From a bacterium (GTDB taxonomy: Bacteria; Patescibacteriota; Minisyncoccia; Phycocordibacterales; GWA1-40-21), in contig JBAWVR010000002.1 of NCBI GenBank assembly GCA_037147155.1, positions 1 through 38,573 of the forward strand: a DNA stretch of 38,573 nt, in the 5' to 3' direction. The translations under genes and the position numbers were made by a program. Position 1 is the first letter of the stretch. The number at the start of each line of letters is the position of its first letter. Shown here piece by piece: positions 1,054 to 38,573 of the stretch. Below the pieces are notes generated by a model that saw only the letters and a program-made list of their open reading frames with translations, was not told the origin of the DNA and searched no databases.

Positions 1054-3519
1054 ATGTCAGACAAAAAAGATAAAAAAGTTGAGGAGGCGATTGTGCCACA
1101 CGTAAACGTCTCAGGACGTAGTATTACGACTGAAATGAAAGAGTGTTATTTGGACTATGCGATGTCCGTTATTACTCAGCGTGCTTTACCTGATGTTCGT
1201 GATGGTCTAAAACCAGTTCACCGTCGTATTCTTTTTGCTATGAACCAAATGGGTTTAACAGCAGGAGCCAAGACTCGTAAATCCGCCGCTGTGGTGGGTG
1301 AAGTGCTTGGTAACTATCACCCTCATGGTGACGTGGCAGTGTATGAATCTATGGTTAAACTCGCACAAGATTTTGCCTGTCGTTACCCTTTGATTATTGG
1401 TCAAGGTAACTTTGGTTCCATTGATGGAGATAGTGCTGCGGCCATGCGTTATACCGAAGCCAAGATGTCCAAGATGTCCTCTGAACTTTTGCGAGACATT
1501 GAAAAAGAAACTGTTAACTGGCGACCAAACTATGACAACACCAAGAAGGAACCTGAAGTGCTGCCAACCGCTGTTCCGAACTTACTTCTAAACGGTATTA
1601 TGGGTATTGCTGTCGGTATGGCCACCAACATCCCACCACACAACCTAGGTGAAGTGATTGATGCTACTTCATATTTGTTGGAGAATCCAAAAGACACCAC
1701 CACTGAAGATTTGCTCAAATTCATCAAGGGTCCTGACTTTCCAATGGGTGGAATTATTTTTAATGAAGCCGATATCAAGCGTGCATATGCTACCGGTCGC
1801 GGTGGTGTGGTTTGTCGCGGTCAGGCTGAAATCGTCGAAGACAAAAAAGGAGCTTTTCAAATTATCATTACTTCTATTCCGTACCGTGTGAACAAAGCGG
1901 ATTTTATTATGAGTATCGCGGACTTGGTTCGCGACAAAAAGATTGATGGTATTAAGGGTTTGCGTGATGAGTCGGCCAAGGATATTCGAGTGGCGATTGA
2001 CCTCAAGGCTGGAGCTCAACCGCAAAAAGTTTTAAATTTCCTTTACAAACACACTCAATTAGAAGATTCTTTCAACTTTAACGTCGTGGCTCTGGTTGAT
2101 GGTGTACCACAAACTTTGTCTCTCAAAGCAATTTTGGATAATTTTATTTCACACCGCAAGATTGTGATTCGTCGTCGTACAGAATTTGATTTGGACAAAG
2201 CTCTTGCACGTGAGCATATTTTGCTCGGCTTGAAGAAGGCATTGGACCATATTGACGAGATTATTAAACTCATCAAAAAGTCCAAAGATGTTGAAGAAGC
2301 TCGCTTGGCTTTGATGAAGACTTTCAAATTCTCTGAAATTCAAGCCAATGCAATTCTGGAAATGAAATTGCAGAAATTGGCTGGTTTGGAACGCAAAAAA
2401 ATTGAGGATGAATTGAAGGCGGTCCAGGCTCTGATTGAAGATCTGAAAGACATCCTAGCTAATCCAAAAAGAATCATCAAAGTCATCAAGGATGAATTGA
2501 TTGATATCAAAGCACGATATGGTGATGAACGCCGTACCAAAGTGGTCAAAGGTGGCGTCGCCAACCTCTCTGATGAGGATTTGATTCCGGATGAAGAAAC
2601 TGTTTTGGTGTTGACCGCTGGCGGTTATGTCAAACGCACCAATCCTGATGAATATCACAAACAGAAGCGTGGTGGTGTCGGTGTGGTGGATCTGGATACC
2701 AAAGAAGAAGATTTTGTGACTACACTTTTGACTACCACTACCCACAGTGATGTTCTCTTCTTTACCGATAAAGGCAAGGCCTTCCAGATCAAAATGTATG
2801 ATTTGCCAGAAGGTAAGCGTGCTACCAAGGGTAAGTCTATCGTGAACTTCCTCTCAATTGGTGACAATGAAAAGATTACCTCTGTTCTCGCTATGCCAAA
2901 GGGAGTGAAGAATTCTGGTCTCAGCTTATTTATGATTACCAAGCAAGGTACTGCCAAAATGGTAGAAGCCAAAGCTTTTGAAGATGTTCGTCGCAACGGT
3001 TTGATTGCTATTACCTTAAATGATGGTGATGAACTCAAGTCTGTCTCATTCGTGGACAAGGGTGATGATGTTATCGTCGCTACTACCAAAGGTCAGTCTA
3101 TTCGTTTCAAGGGCACTGATATTCGCGTCATGGGTCGCAATGCGGCTGGTGTCCGTGGTATCAAGCTTGGCAAGGGTGACTTCGTGATTGGTGCTGATGT
3201 GGTCAAGAAAGATATGGAGAATCCAAGCATGATGGTGATTTCGGCTAACGGTTACGGTAAGAAGACTCCACTCAAGGAATACAAGACACAGGGTCGCGGT
3301 GGTTCCGGTATCAAGACCATGAAGGTTACTCCAAAGACGGGAGAGATTATCAGTTCCAAAGTGGTATCAAGTGAGGAAGAACTGGTAGTAATTTCTAAAC
3401 AAAGTCAGGTTATTCGTACTAGTTTGGAAGAGATTCCATCACTCGGCCGTCAGACTCAGGGTGTGCGTGTGATGAAGCTTCGCGAGGGTGATGGCATTGC
3501 TTCACTTATTTGTCTCTAG
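1054..3519 (+). CDS. gyrA: DNA gyrase subunit A
   Basis: 821 aa. Contains [25 protein letters not shown], the catalytic region AAAMRYTEA, a GyrA-box-like KQKRGGVG, and repeated C-terminal beta-pinwheel blades. Confidence 0.95.
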
Positions 3520-4164: not shown

Positions 4165-5459
4165 AAGCATTTCAAATAATTTTATTAGGCTTTTTTGTGG
4201 CTCTAGCCATTGCCGGTTTAGTGGCTTTTGCAATGTTTCGTGGAGGTAGTCAGCAGGCTTCAACTATTACAGTTTGGGGAATGGTGCCTAATGAATCAAT
4301 TGATAAAATTCTCGGCGAATTACGTTCTAGTCGCAATGGAGCCGTGAACATGACTTACATTTACAAAGATCCAGCTGTTTTTGATAGCGATTTGTTAAAC
4401 GCTATCGCTAGTGGTAAAAGTCCGGATGCGGTCATTCTACCGAATGATTTGATTTATCGTTATTCTGATAAAATAATTCCTGTCCCATATTCTAATCTTA
4501 GTGAAAGTGATTTTAGAGATACTTATGTAGACATGGCTTCAGTTTATCTAACAACTAATGGAATTTTGGCTTTACCGATTAGTGTTGATCCGTTGATTAT
4601 GTATTGGAATAGAGATATTTTTAATACCACAGGGAAAACTAATCCACCAGCCTATTGGGATGAATTACAAGCTATGGTACCGGATTTTGTAGTTAAAAAT
4701 GCTAGCAAGGACATTATGCGCTCAGGTGTCGCTTTTGGAGAATTTAGAAATGTTACACATCCCAAGGAACTCTTGACTCTGCTTATGATGCAAGCAGGCA
4801 GTCGTATGGTGGAGAATAATGCAGGTTATTACACTGCTAATCTAGACGAATCAACTACCGGTAGTGGTGTTTACCCAGCTAGTGCCGCTTTTAGATACTA
4901 CAGCGACTTTGCTGATCCAAATAAAATTGTCTATAGTTGGAATCGTTCTTTGAAGAATGATAAACAAACATTTATCGCAGGAGATTTGGCTGTTTATTTT
5001 GGTTTAGCTTCGGAATACAATGAGATAGCAGCCAAGAACCCTAATTTGAATTTTGGTATTTCCTCAGTTCCACAAAAACGTGATGCGCGTATTTTTATAA
5101 CAGATGGTTTGATGAATGGTTTTTCTATTTTGAAAGGAAGTGCCAATCCGTCCAACGCCCTCACTCAGATTACGAAAATTTTGGCACCAGATGTTTTGCA
5201 GTACTGGGTAGATTACGGAAAAATAGTTCCAGCTAGACGAGATATGTTAGCTACGACCAATAGTGATAATATTTTAAAAGTTTTATCATACCGTTCTGCT
5301 CTGTCAGCCAAAACCTGGATGGACCCAGATGGCAAAGAGACTGATAGAATATTTCAGCAGTCCATCGAATCAATATCCACTGGAAAAAATTATGTCTATG
5401 AAGCAATTGCTGATTTAAATGGCGGTATTAACTTATTATTAGCTAAATATAAAAAGTAA
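4161..5459 (+). CDS. membrane-anchored extracellular solute-binding-protein-like protein
   Basis: 432 aa with an N-terminal TM helix. Overall resemblance to family-1 periplasmic sugar-binding proteins. Its start overlaps the upstream stop (ATGA). No ABC permease or ATPase gene lies nearby. Confidence 0.5.
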   Translation: MKAFQIILLGFFVALAIAGLVAFAMFRGGSQQASTITVWGMVPNESIDKILGELRSSRNGAVNMTYIYKDPAVFDSDLLNAIASGKSPDAVILPNDLIYRYSDKIIPVPYSNLSESDFRDTYVDMASVYLTTNGILALPISVDPLIMYWNRDIFNTTGKTNPPAYWDELQAMVPDFVVKNASKDIMRSGVAFGEFRNVTHPKELLTLLMMQAGSRMVENNAGYYTANLDESTTGSGVYPASAAFRYYSDFADPNKIVYSWNRSLKNDKQTFIAGDLAVYFGLASEYNEIAAKNPNLNFGISSVPQKRDARIFITDGLMNGFSILKGSANPSNALTQITKILAPDVLQYWVDYGKIVPARRDMLATTNSDNILKVLSYRSALSAKTWMDPDGKETDRIFQQSIESISTGKNYVYEAIADLNGGINLLLAKYKK

Positions 5460-5908
5460 TGAAGAAATATTTATTAACATCTTTTTTGATTTCAATCTTT
5501 TTTGTTACTTCTGTTGGCCCAGTTTTTGCTCAGAGTGAATTGCCATCCAAACCCGTTACACCCAGCAGTTTTAGTGGCCTAGTAAATTGCGGCAACAAGA
5601 TTGTGAATGGCAAAATCGATCCGTCGGACCAATGTACTTTTGATAAGTTGGTGGAAATGTTTAAATATATAATGAAGTACGCTCTATGGCTGATTATGCT
5701 GGCTATGGTCGGAGTCTTTGTTTTTATGGGCTTTATGTATATCAAATCGCAGGGTAGTTCTGCTGAAGTTAAAAAAGCCTGGGATATGATGAAAAAAATG
5801 GCCATCGGTGTATTTTGGATGCTATGTGCCTGGATTATTGTTTATACAATTTTATCTCAATTGGGTAATGATAAGACAAATATTTTGAGATTTTTTAGCA
5901 AACCATAA
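5459..5908 (+). CDS. T4SS-pilin-like (TrbC/VirB2-type) small membrane protein, paralog 1
   Basis: Signal peptide ending VFAQS, then two TM helices separated by a short basic loop (YIKSQGSSAEVKKAWD). The start overlaps the upstream stop (TAATG). Confidence 0.6.
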   Translation: MKKYLLTSFLISIFFVTSVGPVFAQSELPSKPVTPSSFSGLVNCGNKIVNGKIDPSDQCTFDKLVEMFKYIMKYALWLIMLAMVGVFVFMGFMYIKSQGSSAEVKKAWDMMKKMAIGVFWMLCAWIIVYTILSQLGNDKTNILRFFSKP

Positions 5909-5934
5909 TAATTAAACATAAATTAATAACAAAT

Positions 5935-6270
5935 ATGAAAAAAATATTATTTATTTTACTTGCCTGGAGTCTGCCAATGTTTTTTGTTTTTGCTGCCAGT
6001 TCCGCCACTTTGGATAATCCATTAAAATGGGATACTTTGGAGGGGGCAGTGGCTGGTATTATGAGTGTGATTGTTAAAGTTGGTGCCATTGCTGTCATTC
6101 TAGCCTTTATTTGGGTAGGTTGGATGTATGTTAAGGCTCAGGGAGCACCAAAAGATATCGAGGCTGCACACAAGGCTTTTCAATACACAGTTATTGGCGC
6201 TTTGGTTTTATTAGGAGCTGATGTGATTGCTAATCTGATTGCTGGTACAGTCAAAACTATTCAAAAATAA
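5935..6270 (+). CDS. T4SS-pilin-like protein, paralog 2 (most canonical)
   Basis: Signal peptide; LDNPL motif; TM1; loop YVKAQGAPKDIEAAHKAF; TM2. This is the typical layout of CPR pilin-family proteins. Confidence 0.75.
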   Translation: MKKILFILLAWSLPMFFVFAASSATLDNPLKWDTLEGAVAGIMSVIVKVGAIAVILAFIWVGWMYVKAQGAPKDIEAAHKAFQYTVIGALVLLGADVIANLIAGTVKTIQK

Positions 6271-6272
6271 TT

Positions 6273-7061
6273 ATGAAAAAAACTACCCCAGCTTTATTGC
6301 TTTCTAGTCTGATTGTGGCACTTAGTCCGTTTGTGGCCTCAGCCTATTCTGCTACCAATATTAAAGATTTATTGCAGGGTACAGTGGATAATATTTTGAA
6401 ACCAGTTGTGGTAATTTTAATCGGTTTGGCAGTTTTGGCGACTCTTTGGAATGGTTTTAAGATTGTTAAAGAAAGCGGGGGTAAAGATATTGCCAAATAT
6501 CGCACAGCTTTAATTATGAGTATTATTGCTCTAGCCGTTATGGTTAGCTTCTGGGGAATTATTGGGATAATGCGTGATACTTTTGGTTTGACTCGTTCAG
6601 ATAGCGTACTTAATCGTTTGGGTAGTGGCTCTACAAATATTAACGGCCAGATAGTCTCTGGTTCGAATGCTCAGTTTACAGCCGGATCTGCAGAGTCAAT
6701 ATTTTTAAATAACTCTAGCCAAAATACCACTATTAAAAATAGTTATAGTTCAGGTGCTGGTACTATTGATGGAGCCGGTTTTGATACAAAGTCTATTGAC
6801 GGTGTGGGTGTAGTCCAAACAGCGGGTGCTAGTAGCGGTTCATTTCAAAGTATAGATGCAAATGGCAATATGATTAGTCCTCAGAATGATGCAATAAAAA
6901 CTGTTGGTGGTTCTGGTAATGCTAACTCTAATAATGATTCAGTAGTTAGTGATATGTATGGTAACCAGGGTGCAGGCTGGCAGGGCACTAAACAAGTAGA
7001 TACTTTCAATAATACTGTCGCCAAGCCAACCAATGGTTTTATTAATTGGATATTTAAGTAA
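6273..7061 (+). CDS. T4SS-pilin-like protein, paralog 3, with a long Ser/Gly/Asn-rich C-terminal extension
   Basis: Signal peptide, two TM helices and the loop KIVKESGGKDIAKYR, followed by about 150 aa of low-complexity tail. Confidence 0.6.
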   Translation: MKKTTPALLLSSLIVALSPFVASAYSATNIKDLLQGTVDNILKPVVVILIGLAVLATLWNGFKIVKESGGKDIAKYRTALIMSIIALAVMVSFWGIIGIMRDTFGLTRSDSVLNRLGSGSTNINGQIVSGSNAQFTAGSAESIFLNNSSQNTTIKNSYSSGAGTIDGAGFDTKSIDGVGVVQTAGASSGSFQSIDANGNMISPQNDAIKTVGGSGNANSNNDSVVSDMYGNQGAGWQGTKQVDTFNNTVAKPTNGFINWIFK

Positions 7062-7065
7062 AAGT

Positions 7066-7413
7066 ATGAAAAATATTTTACTAGCTTTTACAGTTTTGGC
7101 ACCAATATTTACTTTTGCAGCCAATCTAAAGACAGATTATTTGAGATCTTTTTTTGGCAGTGCCACAACCATCATTACAAGCTTAGCTGTTTTGGTAATT
7201 TCTATCACCGTTCTGTATTTGATATTAAGTGTGGTTTCTTTTATGAGAAATAATATGATTGATAAAGCCAAGAGGGCTGAGGCGGCTACGGGAATCTTGT
7301 GGAGTGTTATAGCTATTGCTGTTATGGTGTCTATTTGGGGTATAGTTTCAATTCTCCAGGGCATGTTTTTTAGTGATCTTTCTGGTCAGGTATTCAACGG
7401 TTCAATTAAATAA
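7066..7413 (+). CDS. T4SS-pilin-like protein, paralog 4
   Basis: The in-frame ATG at 7066 gives MKNILLAFTVL.. with a signal peptide. Two TM helices with a basic loop. Confidence 0.6.
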   Translation: MKNILLAFTVLAPIFTFAANLKTDYLRSFFGSATTIITSLAVLVISITVLYLILSVVSFMRNNMIDKAKRAEAATGILWSVIAIAVMVSIWGIVSILQGMFFSDLSGQVFNGSIK

Positions 7414-7650
7414 AAGGCATTAAACCTTACAAGTTCTGTACAACTTTCGTTTATTTTTAAGTAAAAGCTCAGGGCCTTACAAAGCTCTGAGTGTTCGTTA
7501 TTGTGATTGGGTTGTGGGTGTAAAGTAATATTTAAAGTTATCTACACCGCATCTTTTTTACTATTTGCTTTTTTGTATTTGATGATATAATTATAAGGTA
7601 AAAAGGTCATAGGTCAAAAATTATTAATAAATATTTTTACAAAATAAAAA

Positions 7651-8004
7651 ATGAAAAAAGTTTTAGCAATCAGTTTGTCATCAGTATTGCCATTTATGGC
7701 TTTAGCTGCCACACCAAGTACTCAGTATATTTCAACTTGGATTGAACAAATCCAAAGTATTATTAACAGTCTCGTTCCAGTATTGGTTGGTTTGTCCGTT
7801 CTATTCTTCATTTGGAGTATTTTCAAGTACATCAAATCTGATGATCCAAAGACCAAGGGCGACGCTGCAAAGGGAATGATGTGGGGTATTGTTTTCTTGG
7901 CTGTTATCGTTTCAGTTTGGGGATTGGTTGCATTATTGCAAAACATCTTCGGTGTTGATACTCGTGGTGTAAGTAATGTTCGAAACCTCGTACCTACAAA
8001 CTAA
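7651..8004 (+). CDS. T4SS-pilin-like protein, paralog 5
   Basis: Signal peptide (MALAATP), TM1, loop YIKSDDPKTKGDAAKG, TM2. Confidence 0.65.
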   Translation: MKKVLAISLSSVLPFMALAATPSTQYISTWIEQIQSIINSLVPVLVGLSVLFFIWSIFKYIKSDDPKTKGDAAKGMMWGIVFLAVIVSVWGLVALLQNIFGVDTRGVSNVRNLVPTN

Positions 8005-8797: not shown

Positions 8798-8960
8798 GCT
8801 TTTTCCTCCTGCTAGATGAAATTATGTCTGGAAAAATATATACCATCCGGTATATTTCTTTGAATCTTTCATTATAATAACATAGTGAAGATATAAAGTC
8901 AAAGACAAACAAAGAGGGGATTTGACTTTTTGGCCCAAATAAACGATAATTTAACCCAAT

Positions 8961-9041
8961 GCGCGAGTGGCGAAATTGGTACACGCACTTGCCTTAGGAG
9001 CAAGCGGGGCAACCCATGGAGGTTCAAATCCTCTCTCGCGC
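8961..9041 (+). tRNA. tRNA-Leu (anticodon TAG)
   Basis: Acceptor gcgcgag/ctcgcgc, anticodon loop cttagga, long variable arm, T-loop ttcaaat. No encoded CCA. Confidence 0.9.
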
Positions 9042-9078
9042 ACAAATTAAAATCCCCGAATGGGGATATTTTAATTTG
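9042..9078 (+). terminator. intrinsic terminator after tRNA-Leu(TAG)
   Basis: caaattaaaatcccc gaat ggggatattttaatttg. The stem can extend into the tRNA acceptor 3' strand and its downstream inverted copy. Confidence 0.8.
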
Positions 9079-9266
9079 TGCGCGAGAAACGAGCAATGGG
9101 AATTGCTCGTGTGAGGATTTGAAAGACGGAAGAATATTTTTAGTAAAAAATATTCTGAGTCGGGGTTGCGACCAGTTTTGGCTGACTGAGACAAAACTGA
9201 GTTGTGACCGAGTCCTCCTTATTCTGTCTCGAAGACGATCAGTAAATTATTCCTGACCGAGTCCTT
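9079..9266 (+). repeat. tRNA-matched trailing module, unit A
   Basis: tgcgcgaga + 25-nt hairpin + gaggatttgaa is the inverted tRNA-Leu 3' end. Then GAAAGACGG (9121), a hairpin with a tagtaa loop (9141), GAGtCGGGGTTGCG (9157), a second hairpin, GTGACC (9204), and tcctc pairing back. Tail: aattattcctgaccgagtcct. Confidence 0.7.
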
Positions 9267-9288
9267 TAAATGTGCTATTATTATCTCT

Positions 9289-10352: not shown

Positions 10353-10425
10353 GCGCCCATAGCTCAGTTGGTAGAGCAGTCGCCTCTTAAGCGATTGGTC
10401 GTAGGTTCGAATCCTACTGGGCGCA
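10353..10425 (+). tRNA. tRNA-Lys (anticodon CTT)
   Basis: Acceptor gcgccca/tgggcgc, anticodon loop tcttaag context (cgcctcttaagcg), T-loop ttcgaat. No encoded CCA. Confidence 0.92.
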
Positions 10426-10479
10426 CATCATAAATATTAAAAACCACCAGCTGTCCCTGGTGGTTTTGTTTATGATGTG
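10426..10479 (+). terminator. long intrinsic terminator hairpin after tRNA-Lys
   Basis: Inner stem aaaccaccag/ctggtggttt plus outer stem cacatcataaa/tttatgatgtg, which starts in the last nucleotides of the tRNA. Confidence 0.8.
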
Positions 10480-10612
10480 CGAGCCGGAGTGCGACGGCAC
10501 GAGGCGGGGTCGCGGGTTTTTCTAGCAAGAAAAAACCTGTGACCACAATAAGTGTGCGCCCACAAAATTATTTTTCGAAGGAGAAAAGCGTACTCGCGGT
10601 CCTACCAGTTTT
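10480..10612 (+). repeat. tRNA-matched trailing module, unit B (divergent arms)
   Basis: GCCGGAG-tgc gacg gca-CGAGGCGGGGTCGCGG (10505), a hairpin with a tagcaa loop (10523), GTGACC (10539), then gtgtgcgccca (antisense of the tRNA-Lys acceptor end) and a tcctaccag T-arm-like copy. Confidence 0.6.
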
Positions 10613-11323: not shown

Positions 11324-11342
11324 TCGAGTCCCACCTCGGGCG
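11324..11342 (-). repeat. inverted copy of the tRNA-Leu(TAA) 3' end, with no full module
   Basis: The plus strand tcgagtcccacctcgggc equals the sense sequence of the minus-strand tRNA, giving an 18-nt inverted repeat across the terminator. It is followed only by gggaaaac before the HAD gene. Confidence 0.6.
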
Positions 11343-11344
11343 TC

Positions 11345-11372
11345 AAAAAAACACCTTACGGTGTTTATTTTG
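11345..11372 (-). terminator. intrinsic terminator after tRNA-Leu(TAA)
   Basis: aaacacc gtaa ggtgttt plus a T-run, read on the minus strand. Confidence 0.8.
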
Positions 11373-11455
11373 TGCCCGAGGTGGGACTCGAACCCACACG
11401 GCCTTACGACCCCGAGATTTTAAGTCTCGTACGGCTACCATTACGTCACTCGGGC
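11373..11455 (-). tRNA. tRNA-Leu (anticodon TAA)
   Basis: Minus strand gcccgagtgacgtaatggtag..gagacttaaaatctc..long variable arm..gggttcgagtcccacctcgggca. Confidence 0.9.
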
Positions 11456-11456
11456 A

Positions 11457-11593
11457 TTTTGGGGCCTTGCGGCCTGGGGTATCATCGGTCACAACTCTCC
11501 TTCACACCGTCGTGTTCGGTCGGTCGCGACCCCGCCTCGCGGCCGAACCTTGCTAGGTTCGGACTTCGTTCGCTGCGGCTTTCGATTCTCCCC
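11457..11593 (-). repeat. tRNA-matched trailing module, unit C (after tRNA-Cys)
   Basis: Minus strand reads ggggagaatcgaa (inverted Cys T-arm), AGCCGcAGCGAACGAAGTC, a hairpin with a tagcaa loop, CGAGGCGGGGTCGCGACC, a hairpin, GTGACC, then ccccaggcc (a direct copy of the tRNA 3' end). Confidence 0.65.
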
Positions 11594-11619
11594 AAAAAAT
11601 CGCTAACGCGATTTTTTTG
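11594..11619 (-). terminator. intrinsic terminator after tRNA-Cys
   Basis: aaaaaaatcgc gtta gcgatttttt on the minus strand. Confidence 0.8.
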
Positions 11620-11691
11620 AGGCCTGGGGGAGAATCGAACTCCCGCATATTCCTTTTGCAGAGGAATGCTTTACCACTTAGCAACCAGGCC
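11620..11691 (-). tRNA. tRNA-Cys (anticodon GCA)
   Basis: Minus strand ggcctgg..cctctgcaaaagg..gggagttcgattctcccccaggcct. Confidence 0.9.
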
Positions 11692-20724: not shown

Positions 20725-20828
20725 ATCTAAATAGTATAAGATAGTTACAAAATTTTGCCAAACCACCAACCGCATTTACTTATAGACATTTTCTAAATAT
20801 TGGTTATAATAGCCAGGTAAGTAAATAT

Positions 20829-20912
20829 GCGCAGGTGGCGGAGTGGTCAATCGCAGCAGACTGTAAATCTGTCGCCCATTGGGCTACGGGGGTTCAAATC
20901 CCTCCCTGCGCA
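20829..20912 (+). tRNA. tRNA-Tyr (anticodon GTA)
   Basis: Acceptor gcgcagg/cctgcgc, anticodon loop actgtaaat context, long variable arm, T-loop ttcaaat. Confidence 0.92.
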
Positions 20913-20954
20913 CACGAAAACAATCGACCGGAGACGGTCGATTTTTTCTTTGCG
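20913..20954 (+). terminator. intrinsic terminator after tRNA-Tyr
   Basis: aatcgaccg gaga cggtcgatt plus a T-run. It is embedded in a longer imperfect hairpin that reaches the tRNA 3' end and its inverted copy. Confidence 0.75.
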
Positions 20955-21092
20955 TGCGCAGGGAGGGATTTGAAAGACGGAGCACACGGAGCGGAGCTAA
21001 GTCCAAGTCTACCAAGACTTGGGTGCGAGTCCGGGTCGGAAAAATTCACGAGTGACGATGAGTGAATTATTTCTGACAATTCCCTCCCTGCG
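20955..21092 (+). repeat. tRNA-matched trailing module, unit E1 (long form)
   Basis: 20955-20974 is a perfect 20/20 reverse complement of tRNA-Tyr 20893-20912. Then AGACGGAGCACACGGAGCGGAGCTAAGTC, a hairpin, GGTGCGAGTCCGGGTCGG, a hairpin with a GTGACGAT loop, ATTTCTGACAATT, and the direct copy ccctccctgcg. Confidence 0.75.
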
Positions 21093-21218
21093 TAGGGATT
21101 TGAAAGACGGGAGAATATTTTTAGTAAAAAATTTGCTGAGACGGGGTCGCGAGTACTTAGACTTTTGAAATTTTGTAATTTCAAAAGACTTAGTAACTCG
21201 TGACCAAATCCCTCGCAC
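21093..21218 (+). repeat. tRNA-matched trailing module, unit E2 (short form)
   Basis: tagggattt GAAAGACGGG, a hairpin with a tagtaa loop, GAGaCGGGGTCGCGAG (21142), a long hairpin, CGTGACC (21200), then aaatccctcgca pairing back to the 5' arm. Confidence 0.75.
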
Positions 21219-21265
21219 ACTATGTACGTTTGGCTTTTCTCTCGTTTTACGCTAATATACACCTT

Positions 21266-22396
21266 GTGAACAAGGATAAACGACAAGGCTTAAGAACCTG
21301 GCTGGAAATTGATACCAAAGCGGCAAAACACAACTTTGCTGAGTTTCGACGTACCATTTCTCCCAAGGCGAAAATTATGGCGGTTGTAAAATCCAATGCT
21401 TATGGTAATGGCTTCTTTGACTACGCCAAACTCATTGATGAAATAGGGGCAGACTGGCTAGGTGTGGACTCTGTGATTGAAGCCAAAACTTTGAGAGGTG
21501 AGGGAATAAAAAAACCGATTTTGATCATGGGTTATACTTTGCCAGAAATGCTATCAGTTGCTGCTAAAAATGATGCCTCAATTTCTGTTTCTAACTTTGA
21601 ATATTTTAAGCACCTAGCACAGTTGAAAGAAAAAAATAAAATCAAAATACATATCAAGGTAGACACCGGGATGCGCCGCCATGGTTTTGACGTTAAAGAT
21701 ATGAAGAAACTATTTTCGGAAATAAAAAAACTAGCCAACAAGATTGAGATTGAAGGTTTGTATACTCATCTGGCTAATGCAGCAGATAAAGACCTGTCCG
21801 AAAAGCAAATCGCTGAATATAAAATCTGGAAAAAAGAATTTGAAAACAAGGGCTACAAACCACTACATCATGTTTGTGGTACTGGCGGCACTATGCTCCA
21901 CCCAGAGGCTCATTTTGACCTGGTGCGAGTAGGTATCGGTCTGTATGGTATGTGGCCGAGCCCAGAGGCTAAAATGATTGTTGGTGACAAAATGAATTTG
22001 AAGCCAGTTCTGTCTTGGCGAACCGTGGTGGGCGAAATAAAAAAACTCAAAGCTGGAGAGGGAATTAGTTATGATTTGTCCGAAGTGGTTAGTCGCGATA
22101 CTGTCGTGGCGGTGTGCCCGATAGGTTATTGGCATGGCCTATTCCGCTCTATGTCTAGCAAGGCCAAGTTTTTGGTGAATGGTGTACCTTGCAAGGTCCT
22201 TGGTCGTGTTTGTATGGATATTGTTATGATTGACGTCACCGACGCAGGTAAAGTAAAGATTGGTGATGAAGTGACGATTGTTGGTAAATCAAAAAATTCT
22301 GAAAACACTATGGAGTATTTAGCTGAGACGGCGGGTACCTCAGCTTACGAATTTTCCACCAGAATCAATCCATTGATCAAGAAAATTTTGCTATAG
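21266..22396 (+). CDS. alr: alanine racemase
   Basis: TWLEID.., the PLP-lysine motif AVVKSNAYGNG, and a C-terminal YDLS..VCPIGYWHG. The start is uncertain. The track start GTG 21200 lies inside module E2, so the in-frame GTG at 21266 just before the conserved N-terminus is preferred. Confidence 0.85.
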   Translation: MNKDKRQGLRTWLEIDTKAAKHNFAEFRRTISPKAKIMAVVKSNAYGNGFFDYAKLIDEIGADWLGVDSVIEAKTLRGEGIKKPILIMGYTLPEMLSVAAKNDASISVSNFEYFKHLAQLKEKNKIKIHIKVDTGMRRHGFDVKDMKKLFSEIKKLANKIEIEGLYTHLANAADKDLSEKQIAEYKIWKKEFENKGYKPLHHVCGTGGTMLHPEAHFDLVRVGIGLYGMWPSPEAKMIVGDKMNLKPVLSWRTVVGEIKKLKAGEGISYDLSEVVSRDTVVAVCPIGYWHGLFRSMSSKAKFLVNGVPCKVLGRVCMDIVMIDVTDAGKVKIGDEVTIVGKSKNSENTMEYLAETAGTSAYEFSTRINPLIKKILL

Positions 22397-23531: not shown

Positions 23532-23603
23532 GGGTCCATAGTTTCAATGGTAAAACATCGCACTCCAAACGCGAGGTTCCCCGTTCGAGTCGGGGTGGGC
23601 CCG
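23532..23603 (+). tRNA. tRNA-Trp (anticodon CCA)
   Basis: Acceptor gggtcca/tgggccc (one G-U pair), anticodon loop ctccaaa context (cgcactccaaacgcg), T-arm ccccgttcgagtcgggg. Confidence 0.9.
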
Positions 23604-23635
23604 CAAATAAAAACGCCGAAAGGCGTATTTTTATT
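23604..23635 (+). terminator. intrinsic terminator after tRNA-Trp
   Basis: caaataaaaacgcc gaaa ggcgtatttttatt. With the flanking tgggcccg / cgggccca it forms a roughly 49-nt near-perfect palindrome. Confidence 0.8.
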
Positions 23636-23781
23636 TGCGGGCCCACAGCAGACAAACTGCTTTGTCTGCGTCCCGACTCGAAAGACGGAGCCATGTTTTT
23701 CTAGTAAGAAAAACAGGCGAGTCAGGATCGTGAAAATTAATCAATGACGATTGATTAATTATTCCTGATGATTCGGGGTGG
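23636..23781 (+). repeat. tRNA-matched trailing module, unit F1
   Basis: tgcgggccca + 26-nt hairpin + cccgactcgaa is the inverted tRNA-Trp 3' end. Then AGACGGAG, a hairpin with a tagtaa loop (23702), GCGAGTCAGGATCGTG, a hairpin with an ATGACGAT loop, ATTCCTGATGATT, and the direct copy cggggtgg. Confidence 0.7.
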
Positions 23782-23893
23782 CCCCGACTCGAAAGGCGCA
23801 AGTATATTTTGCTTTGCAAAGCAAAATACTGAGCCGGGATCGCGGAATTTTGTGAGCGACGGCGAGCAAAATATTTGTGACGATTCGGGGTGG
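23782..23893 (+). repeat. tRNA-matched trailing module, unit F2
   Basis: ccccgactcGAAAGGCG, a hairpin, CTGAGCCGGGATCGCGG, a hairpin, TGTGACG, then attcggggtgg. Confidence 0.7.
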
Positions 23894-23946
23894 ATTATTT
23901 AACCGCCGACAATTTAGAATATTCCCGATGATTCGGGGTGGGCCCA
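23894..23946 (+). repeat. terminal direct copy of the tRNA-Trp 3' end
   Basis: ..aatattcccgatgattcggggtgggccca matches the tRNA sequence gagtcggggtgggcccg at 15 of 17 positions. Confidence 0.5.
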
Positions 23947-25150: not shown

Positions 25151-25239
25151 AATTATAATCCTTTTGGGTTAATGGCAAAAACCGTTGCCATATGTTTATC
25201 TGTGAATGATATTAGAACATTTTGAGTGGAATGGCAAGG

Positions 25240-25301
25240 GGGGGAGACGGGAGAGAGACTTGGTCACGAGTTTCTTCCTCGTCGTCGCCGAAAGAATAAT
25301 C
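25240..25301 (-). repeat. tRNA-matched trailing module, G tail (second direct arm copy)
   Basis: Minus strand attattctttcggcgacgacgaggaagaaactcGTGACCaagtctctctcccg. This is a second direct copy of the tRNA-Leu(CAA) T-stem/acceptor strand. Confidence 0.55.
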
Positions 25302-25439
25302 CGGGAGAGAGACTTGGTCAGGCGTTCTTGGTTCGTCGTCACTCACCAAGCCGCACGACCCTGACTCGTGCTGGGATTCTGCTGAATCCCGACTTCGCTA
25401 CGCTCCGTGCACTCCGTCCTTCAAGTCTCTCTCCCGGCA
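25302..25439 (-). repeat. tRNA-matched trailing module, unit G1 (long form)
   Basis: 25420-25439 is a perfect 20/20 inverted copy of the tRNA-Leu(CAA) 3' end. Minus strand: GGACGGAGTGCACGGAGCGTAGCGAAGTC, a hairpin, AGCACGAGTCAGGGTCGTG, a hairpin with a GTGACGAC loop, CCTGACCAAG, and the direct copy tctctctcccgg. Confidence 0.75.
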
Positions 25440-25480
25440 CATATAAAACAAAAAAGCGCTCTGCGCGCTCTTTTAGTTTG
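25440..25480 (-). terminator. intrinsic terminator after tRNA-Leu(CAA)
   Basis: Minus strand aaaagagcgc gcaga gcgctttttt. Confidence 0.8.
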
Positions 25481-25563
25481 TGCCGGGAGAGAGACTTGAA
25501 CTCTCACGAGCTTGCGCCCGATAGATTTTGAGTCTATTGCGTCTACCATTCCGCCATCCCGGC
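25481..25563 (-). tRNA. tRNA-Leu (anticodon CAA)
   Basis: Minus strand gccgggatggcggaatggtag..tagactcaaaatcta..long variable arm..gagagttcaagtctctctcccggca. Confidence 0.9.
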
Positions 25564-38513: not shown

Positions 38514-38573
38514 TGTCGGATCGTCTAAAGGTAGGACAGTGGCCTTTGAAGCCATCAATCTTGGTTCGATTCC
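38514..38573 (+). tRNA. tRNA-Gln (anticodon TTG), truncated by the window end
   Basis: Starts with U1 (tgtcgga). D-arm gtct..ggac, anticodon loop ctttgaa, T-arm begins cttggttcgattcc. Confidence 0.8.

Follow-up and report, generated by a model that had tools for sequence, protein, structure and literature searches.

Three-way-junction modules with tRNA-derived arms behind tRNA and tmRNA genes of Patescibacteria and Elusimicrobia

We analysed a 38,573-nucleotide stretch of patescibacterial DNA (assembly GCA_037147155.1, contig JBAWVR010000002.1; hereafter the window), in which a tRNA-Tyr gene lies upstream of alr, the gene for alanine racemase. The locus at 20829-21219 comprises, in order, tRNA-Tyr, a terminator-like hairpin, a 20-nt inverted copy of tRNA sequence and two tandem structured modules, E1 and E2 (Table 1). 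The tRNA-Tyr gene does not encode CCA. Low GC is a character of this chromosome piece, and those alr homologues that have names carry the labels Paceibacterota or Minisyncoccia, both lineages of the candidate phyla radiation (CPR).

A preliminary description, made from the letters of the window, had pointed to tgcgcagggagggatttgaa (20955-20974) as the exact reverse complement of 20893-20912 in the tRNA, and this is correct. The 20-mer has two matches in the window against 0 expected (100 shuffles). Complementarity extends into the trailer, giving arms of 31 nt at 87% (repeat I3), so the terminator-like hairpin is the tip of a palindrome, roughly 40 bp overall, whose left arm runs from tRNA position 54 to the 3' end and on into the trailer. 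By consensus match, the hairpin qualifies as an intrinsic terminator, with five GC pairs in its stem and TTTTTCTTT after it.

E1 and E2 had also been described as units of a repeated structured module common to other tRNA loci. Consistent with this, both match R1, a covariance model made from modules of other genomes, over model positions 1-113 of 113. The proposed closing stems, gcgcagggaggg/ccctccctgcg in E1 and agggatttg/caaatccct in E2, are confirmed. The helix GGTCGCGAG/CTCGTGACC, part of the stem here called P3, is real, and so is the compensatory change suspected in it: the pair concerned (columns 77/114 of a 62-module alignment) is AU in 24 modules, CG in 18 and GC in 18. A distinction had been drawn between a long and a short form; the difference exists as a larger P2 arm in E1, and the architecture is the same in both. 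Core identity between E1 and E2 is 0.57. In E2 the middle base pair of P2 is broken (A.A), and over its first 57 nt it shares 91% identity with the module behind tRNA-Leu(TAG) (repeat D4). Each unit is much more stable than its shuffled versions (z in Table 1), and folding is better in the tRNA sense than in the opposite one, with minimum free energies (MFE) of -69 vs -56 kcal/mol for E1 and -47 vs -38.5 kcal/mol for E2. If 20829-21219 is presumed to be transcribed as one RNA, then in its MFE fold (-179.8 kcal/mol, vs -167.8 with a forced cloverleaf) the inverted copy takes up the native 3' half of the tRNA, and the direct copy of E1 pairs with the 5' acceptor strand of the tRNA.

The 62-module alignment resolves, in the tRNA-sense reading, a three-way junction in units of about 100-145 nt. 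P1 is closed by tRNA-derived sequence and is followed by the joining strand J12, (Y/G)(C/A)GAAA. P2 starts from the base GNC/GN'C, continues with an internal loop GGA/GA and finishes in a variable hairpin; J23 has the consensus NG; and P3 reads GGUCGCG.../...YGUGACC, with a bulged A, often a GAGCGACGGCGAG tip, and a G.U pair that is invariant in 62/62 modules. Of the aligned cells, 94% are paired, vs 71.4% after shuffling and 35-44.5% with the partners slid, and the covariation score is 0.567 vs 0.170 and at most 0.126, respectively, with strong signal in P2 and P3. The middle pair of the P2 base, for example, is CG in 21 modules, GC in 18, AU in 17 and UA in 3. The discovery pattern itself forced some invariant bases; among 38 covariance-model hits outside that pattern, the junction and loop purines are conserved in 30-37. 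Mismatches in P1 show no wobble bias (A.C about 15, G.U about 17) and thus fit copied arms that drift. The conserved G.U, the tandem G.A, the tetraloops and the sense-strand energies favour an RNA on the tRNA strand as the folded form, with folded single-stranded DNA (ssDNA) also compatible. Two refinements of the fold were discarded. A K-turn in the P2 internal loop lacks the 3-nt bulge, the loop GGA/GA being, by eye, a tandem G.A plus one extra G; and a kissing loop of the P2 tip (CAGCAG) with P0 (ACUGCU), a hairpin further upstream, would join two loop types that do not co-occur.

The arms of the module derive from the adjoining tRNA. A direct copy follows GUGAC, starts at tRNA C56 and is identical over positions 56-67 (12/12) in 48/104 cases; its right boundary peaks at the last encoded base of the tRNA. 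Exact matches cluster at 18-21 nt behind genes lacking CCA, and behind genes that encode it the long matches are mostly of at least 21 nt, with both kinds present in one genome at L088 (L numbers designate individual loci). The 5' strand of P1, before GAAAG, is an inverted copy of tRNA positions 56-65 (T-loop and T-stem 3' strand). In a minority of modules the acceptor strand, and even the trailer, is inverted too, either contiguously (Tyr and Leu-CAA in the window) or after the small hairpin P0; a perfect inverted acceptor copy (7/7 pairing) occurs in about 17% of modules vs 6% in the control, and a mimic of the acceptor/T-arm minihelix was rejected as a general feature on those figures. Some 5' arms read GAUGAG and not GAUUCG, giving tandem G.A pairs against CGAAUC, so the 5' arm is not always a plain copy. 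Read in order, such a locus consists of tRNA(1-76), a spacer or hairpin, the inverted copy, the core, the direct copy(56-76) and downstream DNA. Judged from sequence, this arrangement is equivalent to an insertion between tRNA positions 55 and 56 that re-creates the 3' end, and the tRNA stays intact as a result.

In the 35 loci where the native gene lacks CCA and the direct copy is perfect (for example, L004, L006, L085 and L119), CCA follows the copy in 4/35, and CAA is the commonest triplet after both direct copies and real tRNAs. Native trailers mostly begin with CA (CAA, CAT, CAG, CAC), as though N73-C-A were encoded in the gene. The low CCA count (4/35) eliminated a cDNA copy of the mature tRNA as the source of the direct copy. 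A split tRNA that needs the direct copy was rejected as well: where the copies differ it is the direct copy that is degenerate, and orphan modules have no tRNA body upstream. The CCUGUAAGG hairpin of tRNA-Tyr loci is also found behind tRNA-Leu and others, which disposes of an anticodon-arm mimic; downstream of tRNAs, copies of their own anticodon loops show no enrichment (10 observed vs 10.3 in the control).

To define the distribution of the module, we used a pattern scan with one genome per species, which gave at least 119 loci, including two chance hits inside open reading frames (ORFs; L064 and L079). The module is present in at least 117 loci of species-representative genomes, mainly of Patescibacteria (Kaiser-, Yonath-, Nomura-, Zambryski-, Taylor-, Adler-, Lloyd-, Yanofsky-, Falkow- and Moranii-bacteria, and metagenome-assembled genomes (MAGs) labelled Saccharibacteria) and Elusimicrobia (at least 16 MAGs among the matches listed). 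A few further MAGs bear the labels Gamma- or Deltaproteobacteria or Bdellovibrionales. Among the loci listed, 121/148 modules have a tRNA or tmRNA gene on the same strand no more than 400 nt to their 5' side (median distance 58 nt), and those that do not are mostly at contig edges or behind tmRNAs missed by ARAGORN. In the same loci, a module is carried by 122/213 tRNAs, an upper-biased figure given that loci were selected for at least one module, and by all seven tmRNAs, with further tmRNA cases recognized by Rfam. Eighteen amino-acid types are represented; tRNA-Asp, -Ile and -SeC, of which few were sampled, have none. A terminator-like hairpin stands between tRNA and module in 57/101 loci and after the direct copy in 28/101. 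Among 2.9 million viral contigs there was a single match, which ruled out a phage-borne element; the contig concerned (L121, IMG/VR, 34.7 kb) has two modules in tandem at 2846-3189 and may be a prophage or else a CPR fragment that was classified wrongly.

Within the window, R1 recovers exactly eight modules (49-87 bits, next-best match 10 bits), all directly 3' of tRNAs and on the strand of the tRNA; a simple motif of the core, GAG.C.GG[GA]T[CT]G, has eight occurrences with the same placement. Behind each of the seven complete tRNAs of the window come a hairpin and, after it, an inverted copy of that tRNA's 3' end, with arms of 25-32 nt at 87-92% at Leu-TAG, Leu-TAA, Tyr and Leu-CAA. Three 5'-truncated units, each made up of the 3' half of P3, xUGAC and a direct copy of the tRNA 3' part, lie farthest from the tRNA in their arrays (Leu-TAG, Trp, Leu-CAA). 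The eight cores are 0.51-0.75 identical to one another, and their direct copies are truncated or mutated. From these sequences the copies in the window are old and partly decayed; a recent burst in this genome is ruled out by the low core identity.

Other genomes retain traces of copying. Of ten other genomes that have a pair of modules at different tRNAs, five show core identities of 0.93, 0.90, 0.89, 0.86 and 0.81, compared with a median of 0.65 and a 95th percentile of 0.76 between genomes, while the arms follow the local tRNA. Near-identical cores with different arms at different tRNAs indicate that the core has been copied between tRNA genes. Sites without the module are common: a metagenome scan with the 3' 29-mer of tRNA-Tyr returned 41 loci, of which about 29 have no module (empty sites) and about 12 have the inverted copy, core and direct copy, with at least two further core types of the same topology. 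The module is dispensable, as many genomes with the same tRNA-Tyr 3' end have none. Orphan modules and one locus disrupted by an insertion sequence (IS) were also among the listed loci. At L022 (3500-3830), an orphan module directly follows an IS-type transposase ORF, by which the tRNA has apparently been displaced, and at L111 (1854-2114) a small HNH-endonuclease-like ORF precedes another orphan by about 190 nt. Other core types between inverted and direct tRNA copies, with the same three-way topology and no match in Rfam, were seen at L133 (7669-8083), L137 (1118-1532), L132 (2376-2790), L127 (two sites) and L007; one of them, a 'type 2' core, ends in ...UACCG-NNCCUGUAAGGNN before the direct copy.

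We tentatively read the family as a non-autonomous, T-loop-anchored structured element that is copied from tRNA gene to tRNA gene, and put the probability of this at roughly 0.45. The near-universal TTCGAA/CGAATCC sequence of the T-loop would provide a common anchor, the arms would be re-matched to every new host tRNA, and selection would act on the conserved fold, either for propagation and retention or for some RNA role. Copying would then be an active mobility process. The arms could be templated by template switching during replication or reverse transcription (RT) at the trailer hairpin and T-loop microhomology, or by recombination of a folded single strand, and the active form would be RNA rather than folded ssDNA.

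Several observations weigh against this reading. No mobilizing enzyme was found: the genes of the window include no integrase, transposase, RT or recombinase, those other than the ones treated here being housekeeping (GyrA, IF-2, RbfA, ClpB, MiaA, ParB, TopA, DprA). The 51-75% identity among the eight copies gives no sign of recent activity here. The strong covariation across phyla, in streamlined genomes, could reflect a host function too, and a copy that ends at the last tRNA base, with CCA in 4/35 cases, fits selection for a tRNA-like 3' end equally. Finally, with a terminator-like hairpin before so many modules, their transcription is not assured and would often need read-through.

The strongest rival, which we regard as possible if somewhat unlikely, is a host-beneficial cis-acting RNA on tRNA or tmRNA transcripts, made by read-through. 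The inverted copy might capture the tRNA 3' half, or the direct copy might be a second 3' end for RNase Z and the CCA-adding enzyme; the junction might recruit a factor that forms 3' ends, backs up termination, exerts quality control or serves a separate RNA tagged with a tRNA end. Such a role accords with the covariation and invariant junction bases across phyla, with the better folding of the sense strand and with the MFE fold of the Tyr locus. The direct copy is identical to the tRNA up to the last encoded base even where its acceptor part is unpaired within the module, and the three bases after it resemble real tRNA trailers; intactness of this kind, and CCA in 4/35, hint that it may serve as a tRNA-like 3' end. 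The Xanthomonas RNA sX4, a relative below threshold of the tRNA and inverted-copy part, was detected as a 280-300-nt RNA (PMC3300014). However, the module is dispensable, 43% of tRNAs in module-bearing loci lack it, and terminator-like hairpins often precede it; the tandem arrays, the units truncated at the 5' end, the orphans and the decay of direct copies resemble turnover, not maintenance; and near-identical cores at different tRNAs of one genome require copying. We rank the copied element, selfish or commensal, above a host function as a cis-acting RNA.

A bolder variant, which we consider doubtful, is a T-loop insertion RNA. Here the direct copy would be an alternative tRNA 3' half, or the end of a tRNA-end-tagged RNA processed by RNase Z and the CCA-adding enzyme, and the three-way junction would bring U55/C56 and GUGAC/C56 together, either as an active centre or as a handle for a protein. 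The element would then be a bacterial intron-like or ribozyme-like RNA that copies itself into genes for RNAs with a T-loop.

We give still less credence to a DNA-level recombination site, in which P1 of the folded ssDNA would mimic the T-arm duplex and a host tyrosine recombinase would exchange strands with the tRNA T-loop. Such a site would work by analogy with integron attC x attI, or with XerCD acting on the folded attP of CTX phage, and would build cassette-like arrays. Arrays of this kind exist (Tyr, Trp and L002), with units that begin with a tRNA 3' portion, end in core-GUGAC and contain unrelated cores (as in E1 and E2); folding is strand-specific; and the boundary is always 55/56 in the palindromic TTCGAA loop. 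Yet no recombinase is linked to the modules among the window genes, there is no conserved GTTRRRY-like core site, the arms vary with the tRNA, and conserved G.U, tandem G.A and tetraloops are more typical of RNA.

The position of E2 bears on the annotation of alr and on the suggestion that the modules sit in its leader. The ORF called from GTG 21200 starts inside P3 of E2, and a true start further downstream had been proposed. All 14 homologues aligned (373-382 amino acids (aa), 51-56% identity) begin with M-x-K-x-x-R-x-G-L-R-T-W, aligned with V(21266)NKDKRQGLRTW, and the 22 residues of 21200-21265 have no counterpart in any of them. The alr start is thus GTG 21266, and the prior call was 22 codons too long. 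No Shine-Dalgarno sequence precedes GTG 21266, and other genes here have GGAGGTG sites (repeat D12). A weak TTGGCT-17-TAATAT, noted by eye at 21230-21258, ends 7 nt before it; if this is the promoter, alr would be nearly leaderless. An alr 5' leader or riboswitch-like regulator is very improbable. E2 does end 47 nt before the revised start, so the leader idea was right about proximity, and a consensus scan showed no strong promoter between modules and alr. A dedicated alr leader is contradicted by the family, which follows tRNAs and tmRNA whatever lies downstream: the one alr homologue locus examined (L120) has no tRNA or module upstream, some of the roughly 29 module-free tRNA-Tyr loci have an alr-like gene nearby, and other modules of the window face a tRNA (Cys) or a convergent gene (Trp). 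The modules belong to the tRNAs, not to alr.

Chance palindromes, decayed tRNA pseudogenes or att-site scars of integrase-bearing islands are least likely of all, and this reading is refuted by the covariance-model and covariation results: direct repeats from T-loop to 3' end are what T-loop-crossover integrases leave, but a covarying three-way-junction core occurs in more than 100 species, units measure only about 100-145 nt in a window that has no integrase, viral contigs gave one match, and the 20-mer has no expected chance match.

Some features lie apart from this argument. A further tRNA at 38514-38573 is cut by the window end. ORFs of 69-130 aa run across tRNAs and modules at 20835-21065 (+), 20894-21286 (-), 21009-21218 (-), 8930-9256 (+) and 25226-25531 (+), and are almost certainly artefacts of structured, GC-richer repeats. 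At 5459-8004, five small paralogous ORFs matching the type IV secretion pilin family PF18895 are clustered, with a repeated segment GCTGTTAT...TTTGGGG (repeat D3).

Table 1 Coordinates of features at the tRNA-Tyr locus, elsewhere in the window and, for sX4, in other loci.
Feature	Position	Strand	Evidence or remark
tRNA-Tyr (GTA)	20829-20913	+	ARAGORN; Rfam tRNA RF00005, 60.9 bits vs gathering score 29
Predicted sigma-70-like promoter TAGACA-16-TATAAT	20783-20810	+	Consensus scan, 11/12 matches; upstream of tRNA-Tyr
Terminator-like hairpin, 9 bp, then T-run	20922-20943	+	Scan and folding; tip of long palindrome
Long palindrome	20893-20974	+	Left arm 20893-20923; right arm 20944-20974, the inverted copy
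Module E1	20961-21088	+	R1, 66.4 bits, E = 9e-19; MFE -69 kcal/mol, z = -8.0
E1 parts	P1 5' arm 20956-20972; J12 AAA 20973-20975; P2 20976-21031; J23 21032-21033; P3 21034-21077		P2 a large arm
E1 direct copy of tRNA 3' part	21078-21092	+	aattccctccctgcg
Module E2	21091-21216	+	R1, 65.5 bits; MFE -47.1 kcal/mol, z = -6.8
E2 parts	P1 5' arm 21094-21102; J12 21103-21105; P2 21106-21142; J23 21143-21144; P3 21145-21205		
E2 direct copy	21206-21213, then cgcaca 21214-21219	+	tRNA 3' end with 5-nt deletion
alr (alanine racemase), revised start GTG	21266-22396	+	15-protein alignment; PF01168 and PF00842 in precomputed Pfam column
Module behind tRNA-Leu(TAG)	9110-9220	+	R1, 87.1 bits
5'-truncated unit after Leu-TAG module	~9221-9270	+	Sequence
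Module behind tRNA-Lys	10470-10553	+	R1, 49.3 bits; T-arm arms lost
Second inverted copy after Lys module, gtgtgcgcccac	10552-10563	+	Sequence
tRNA-Leu(TAA) 3' end, hairpin and inverted copy, no module core	11324-11391	-	Repeat I2, 32 nt at 88%
Module behind tRNA-Cys, between tRNA-Cys and tRNA-Leu(TAA)	11476-11594	-	R1, 65.6 bits
Two tandem modules behind tRNA-Trp	23669-23779, 23780-23892	+	R1, 57.8 and 79.6 bits
5'-truncated third unit at tRNA-Trp	~23893-23945	+	Sequence
Module behind tRNA-Leu(CAA)	25305-25433	-	R1, 67.7 bits; repeat D13
5'-truncated unit at tRNA-Leu(CAA)	~25250-25304	-	Sequence
tRNA, hairpin and inverted copy sites	8961-9092, 10353-10563, 11324-11455, 11476-11691, 20829-20974, 23532-23680, 25420-25563		
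sX4 sub-threshold matches	L033 7376-7529; window 20820-20970; L137 1376-1532; L132 2646-2790		

If the family is what it appears to be, Patescibacteria (CPR) and Elusimicrobia carry a widespread, uncatalogued RNA fold, with eight copies in a 38.5-kb window, joined to the T-loop of tRNA, the most conserved short sequence in biology. It would represent a new way to colonize essential genes harmlessly or, alternatively, a new level in the biology of tRNA and tmRNA, be it alternative 3' ends, RNAs tagged with tRNA ends or control of read-through. On the practical side, modules cause spurious ORFs, wrong start codons (alr here) and confused annotation of tRNA loci, and they probably account for at least one orphan family of small RNAs (sRNAs), sX4. 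The covariance model R1 makes the family directly searchable.

Compared with catalogued RNAs, the modules stand alone: Rfam 15 returned only tRNA and tmRNA at gathering thresholds and nothing relevant over the modules at E up to 10, and full-text literature searches yielded no description of such elements. Integrase-bearing islands and prophages at tRNA genes, through a crossover in the T-loop, leave a direct repeat from the T-loop to the tRNA 3' end. Like the module, they preserve the tRNA, generate that repeat and target tmRNA genes. Unlike them, the module measures about 100-145 nt, has neither integrase nor cargo and contains an extra inverted copy of the target; its conserved three-way-junction core occurs at nearly every tRNA kind and is almost absent from viral contigs. 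As for an integrase att site, the direct repeats are present and the integrase is absent from the window. Integron attC arrays and CTX attP have in common with the module strand-specific folding, what would be structural recognition, and tandem unrelated units split at a fixed point. In contrast to attC, the modules have no R/L boxes (GTTRRRY) or intI, their arms are copied from the target and their conserved motifs are RNA-like; the absence of GTTRRRY from the module consensus was judged by eye, no formal attC search having been made.

MITEs (miniature transposable elements with inverted repeats), repetitive extragenic palindromes and their mosaic elements (REP/BIME), Correia, RUP and BOX elements are, like the module, small, non-coding, multi-copy, intergenic, hairpin-forming and non-autonomous. 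The terminal repeats of such elements are constant within a family, whereas the arms of the module differ with the host tRNA around a common core; its target is one position in tRNA or tmRNA; and the 'target duplication' of 18-21 nt tracks the tRNA and ends at the gene end. In archaea, tRNA introns at non-canonical positions have been proposed to transpose among tRNA genes. The resemblance lies in related insertions in many tRNA genes, including at T-loop positions, and in pairing of insert with exon; the modules differ in being bacterial and in following a complete tRNA in every case, with no split tRNA and no bulge-helix-bulge motif identified.

The hammerhead ribozyme similarly has a three-way junction, a GAAA strand by one helix and, on that helix's other side, a strand like [C/G]UGAY(S)GA. 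It was rejected as an identity for the module: G, A or C stands where U16.1 and H17 are required, G8 is mostly C, P3 pairs through UGAC, and there was no Rfam hit at E = 10. Nor do the modules resemble a T-box leader or known riboswitch, with no match in Rfam and arbitrary downstream genes.

A single catalogued RNA recurred as a sub-threshold match: sX4 (Rfam RF02223), a Xanthomonas sRNA of 156 nt by differential RNA sequencing (dRNA-seq), but 280-300 nt on Northern blots (PMC3300014). Its model comprises a tRNA-Ser-like sequence, a trailer and GGGGGGUGAGA, which corresponds to an inverted T-stem copy plus the start of J12; the consensus structure pairs GGGGGGUGAGA with the CCCCCC of the tRNA, and the model stops where the module core begins. 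Matches to sX4 stayed below its gathering score of 70 (14.3 bits in the window, 21 bits in L137 and 33.4 bits in L033) and cover the tRNA, trailer and inverted T-stem copy only. It is conceivable that sX4 continues into a module. The module family itself fits no catalogued family: it is widespread and structured, anchored at tRNA and tmRNA genes, and carries arms derived from its target.

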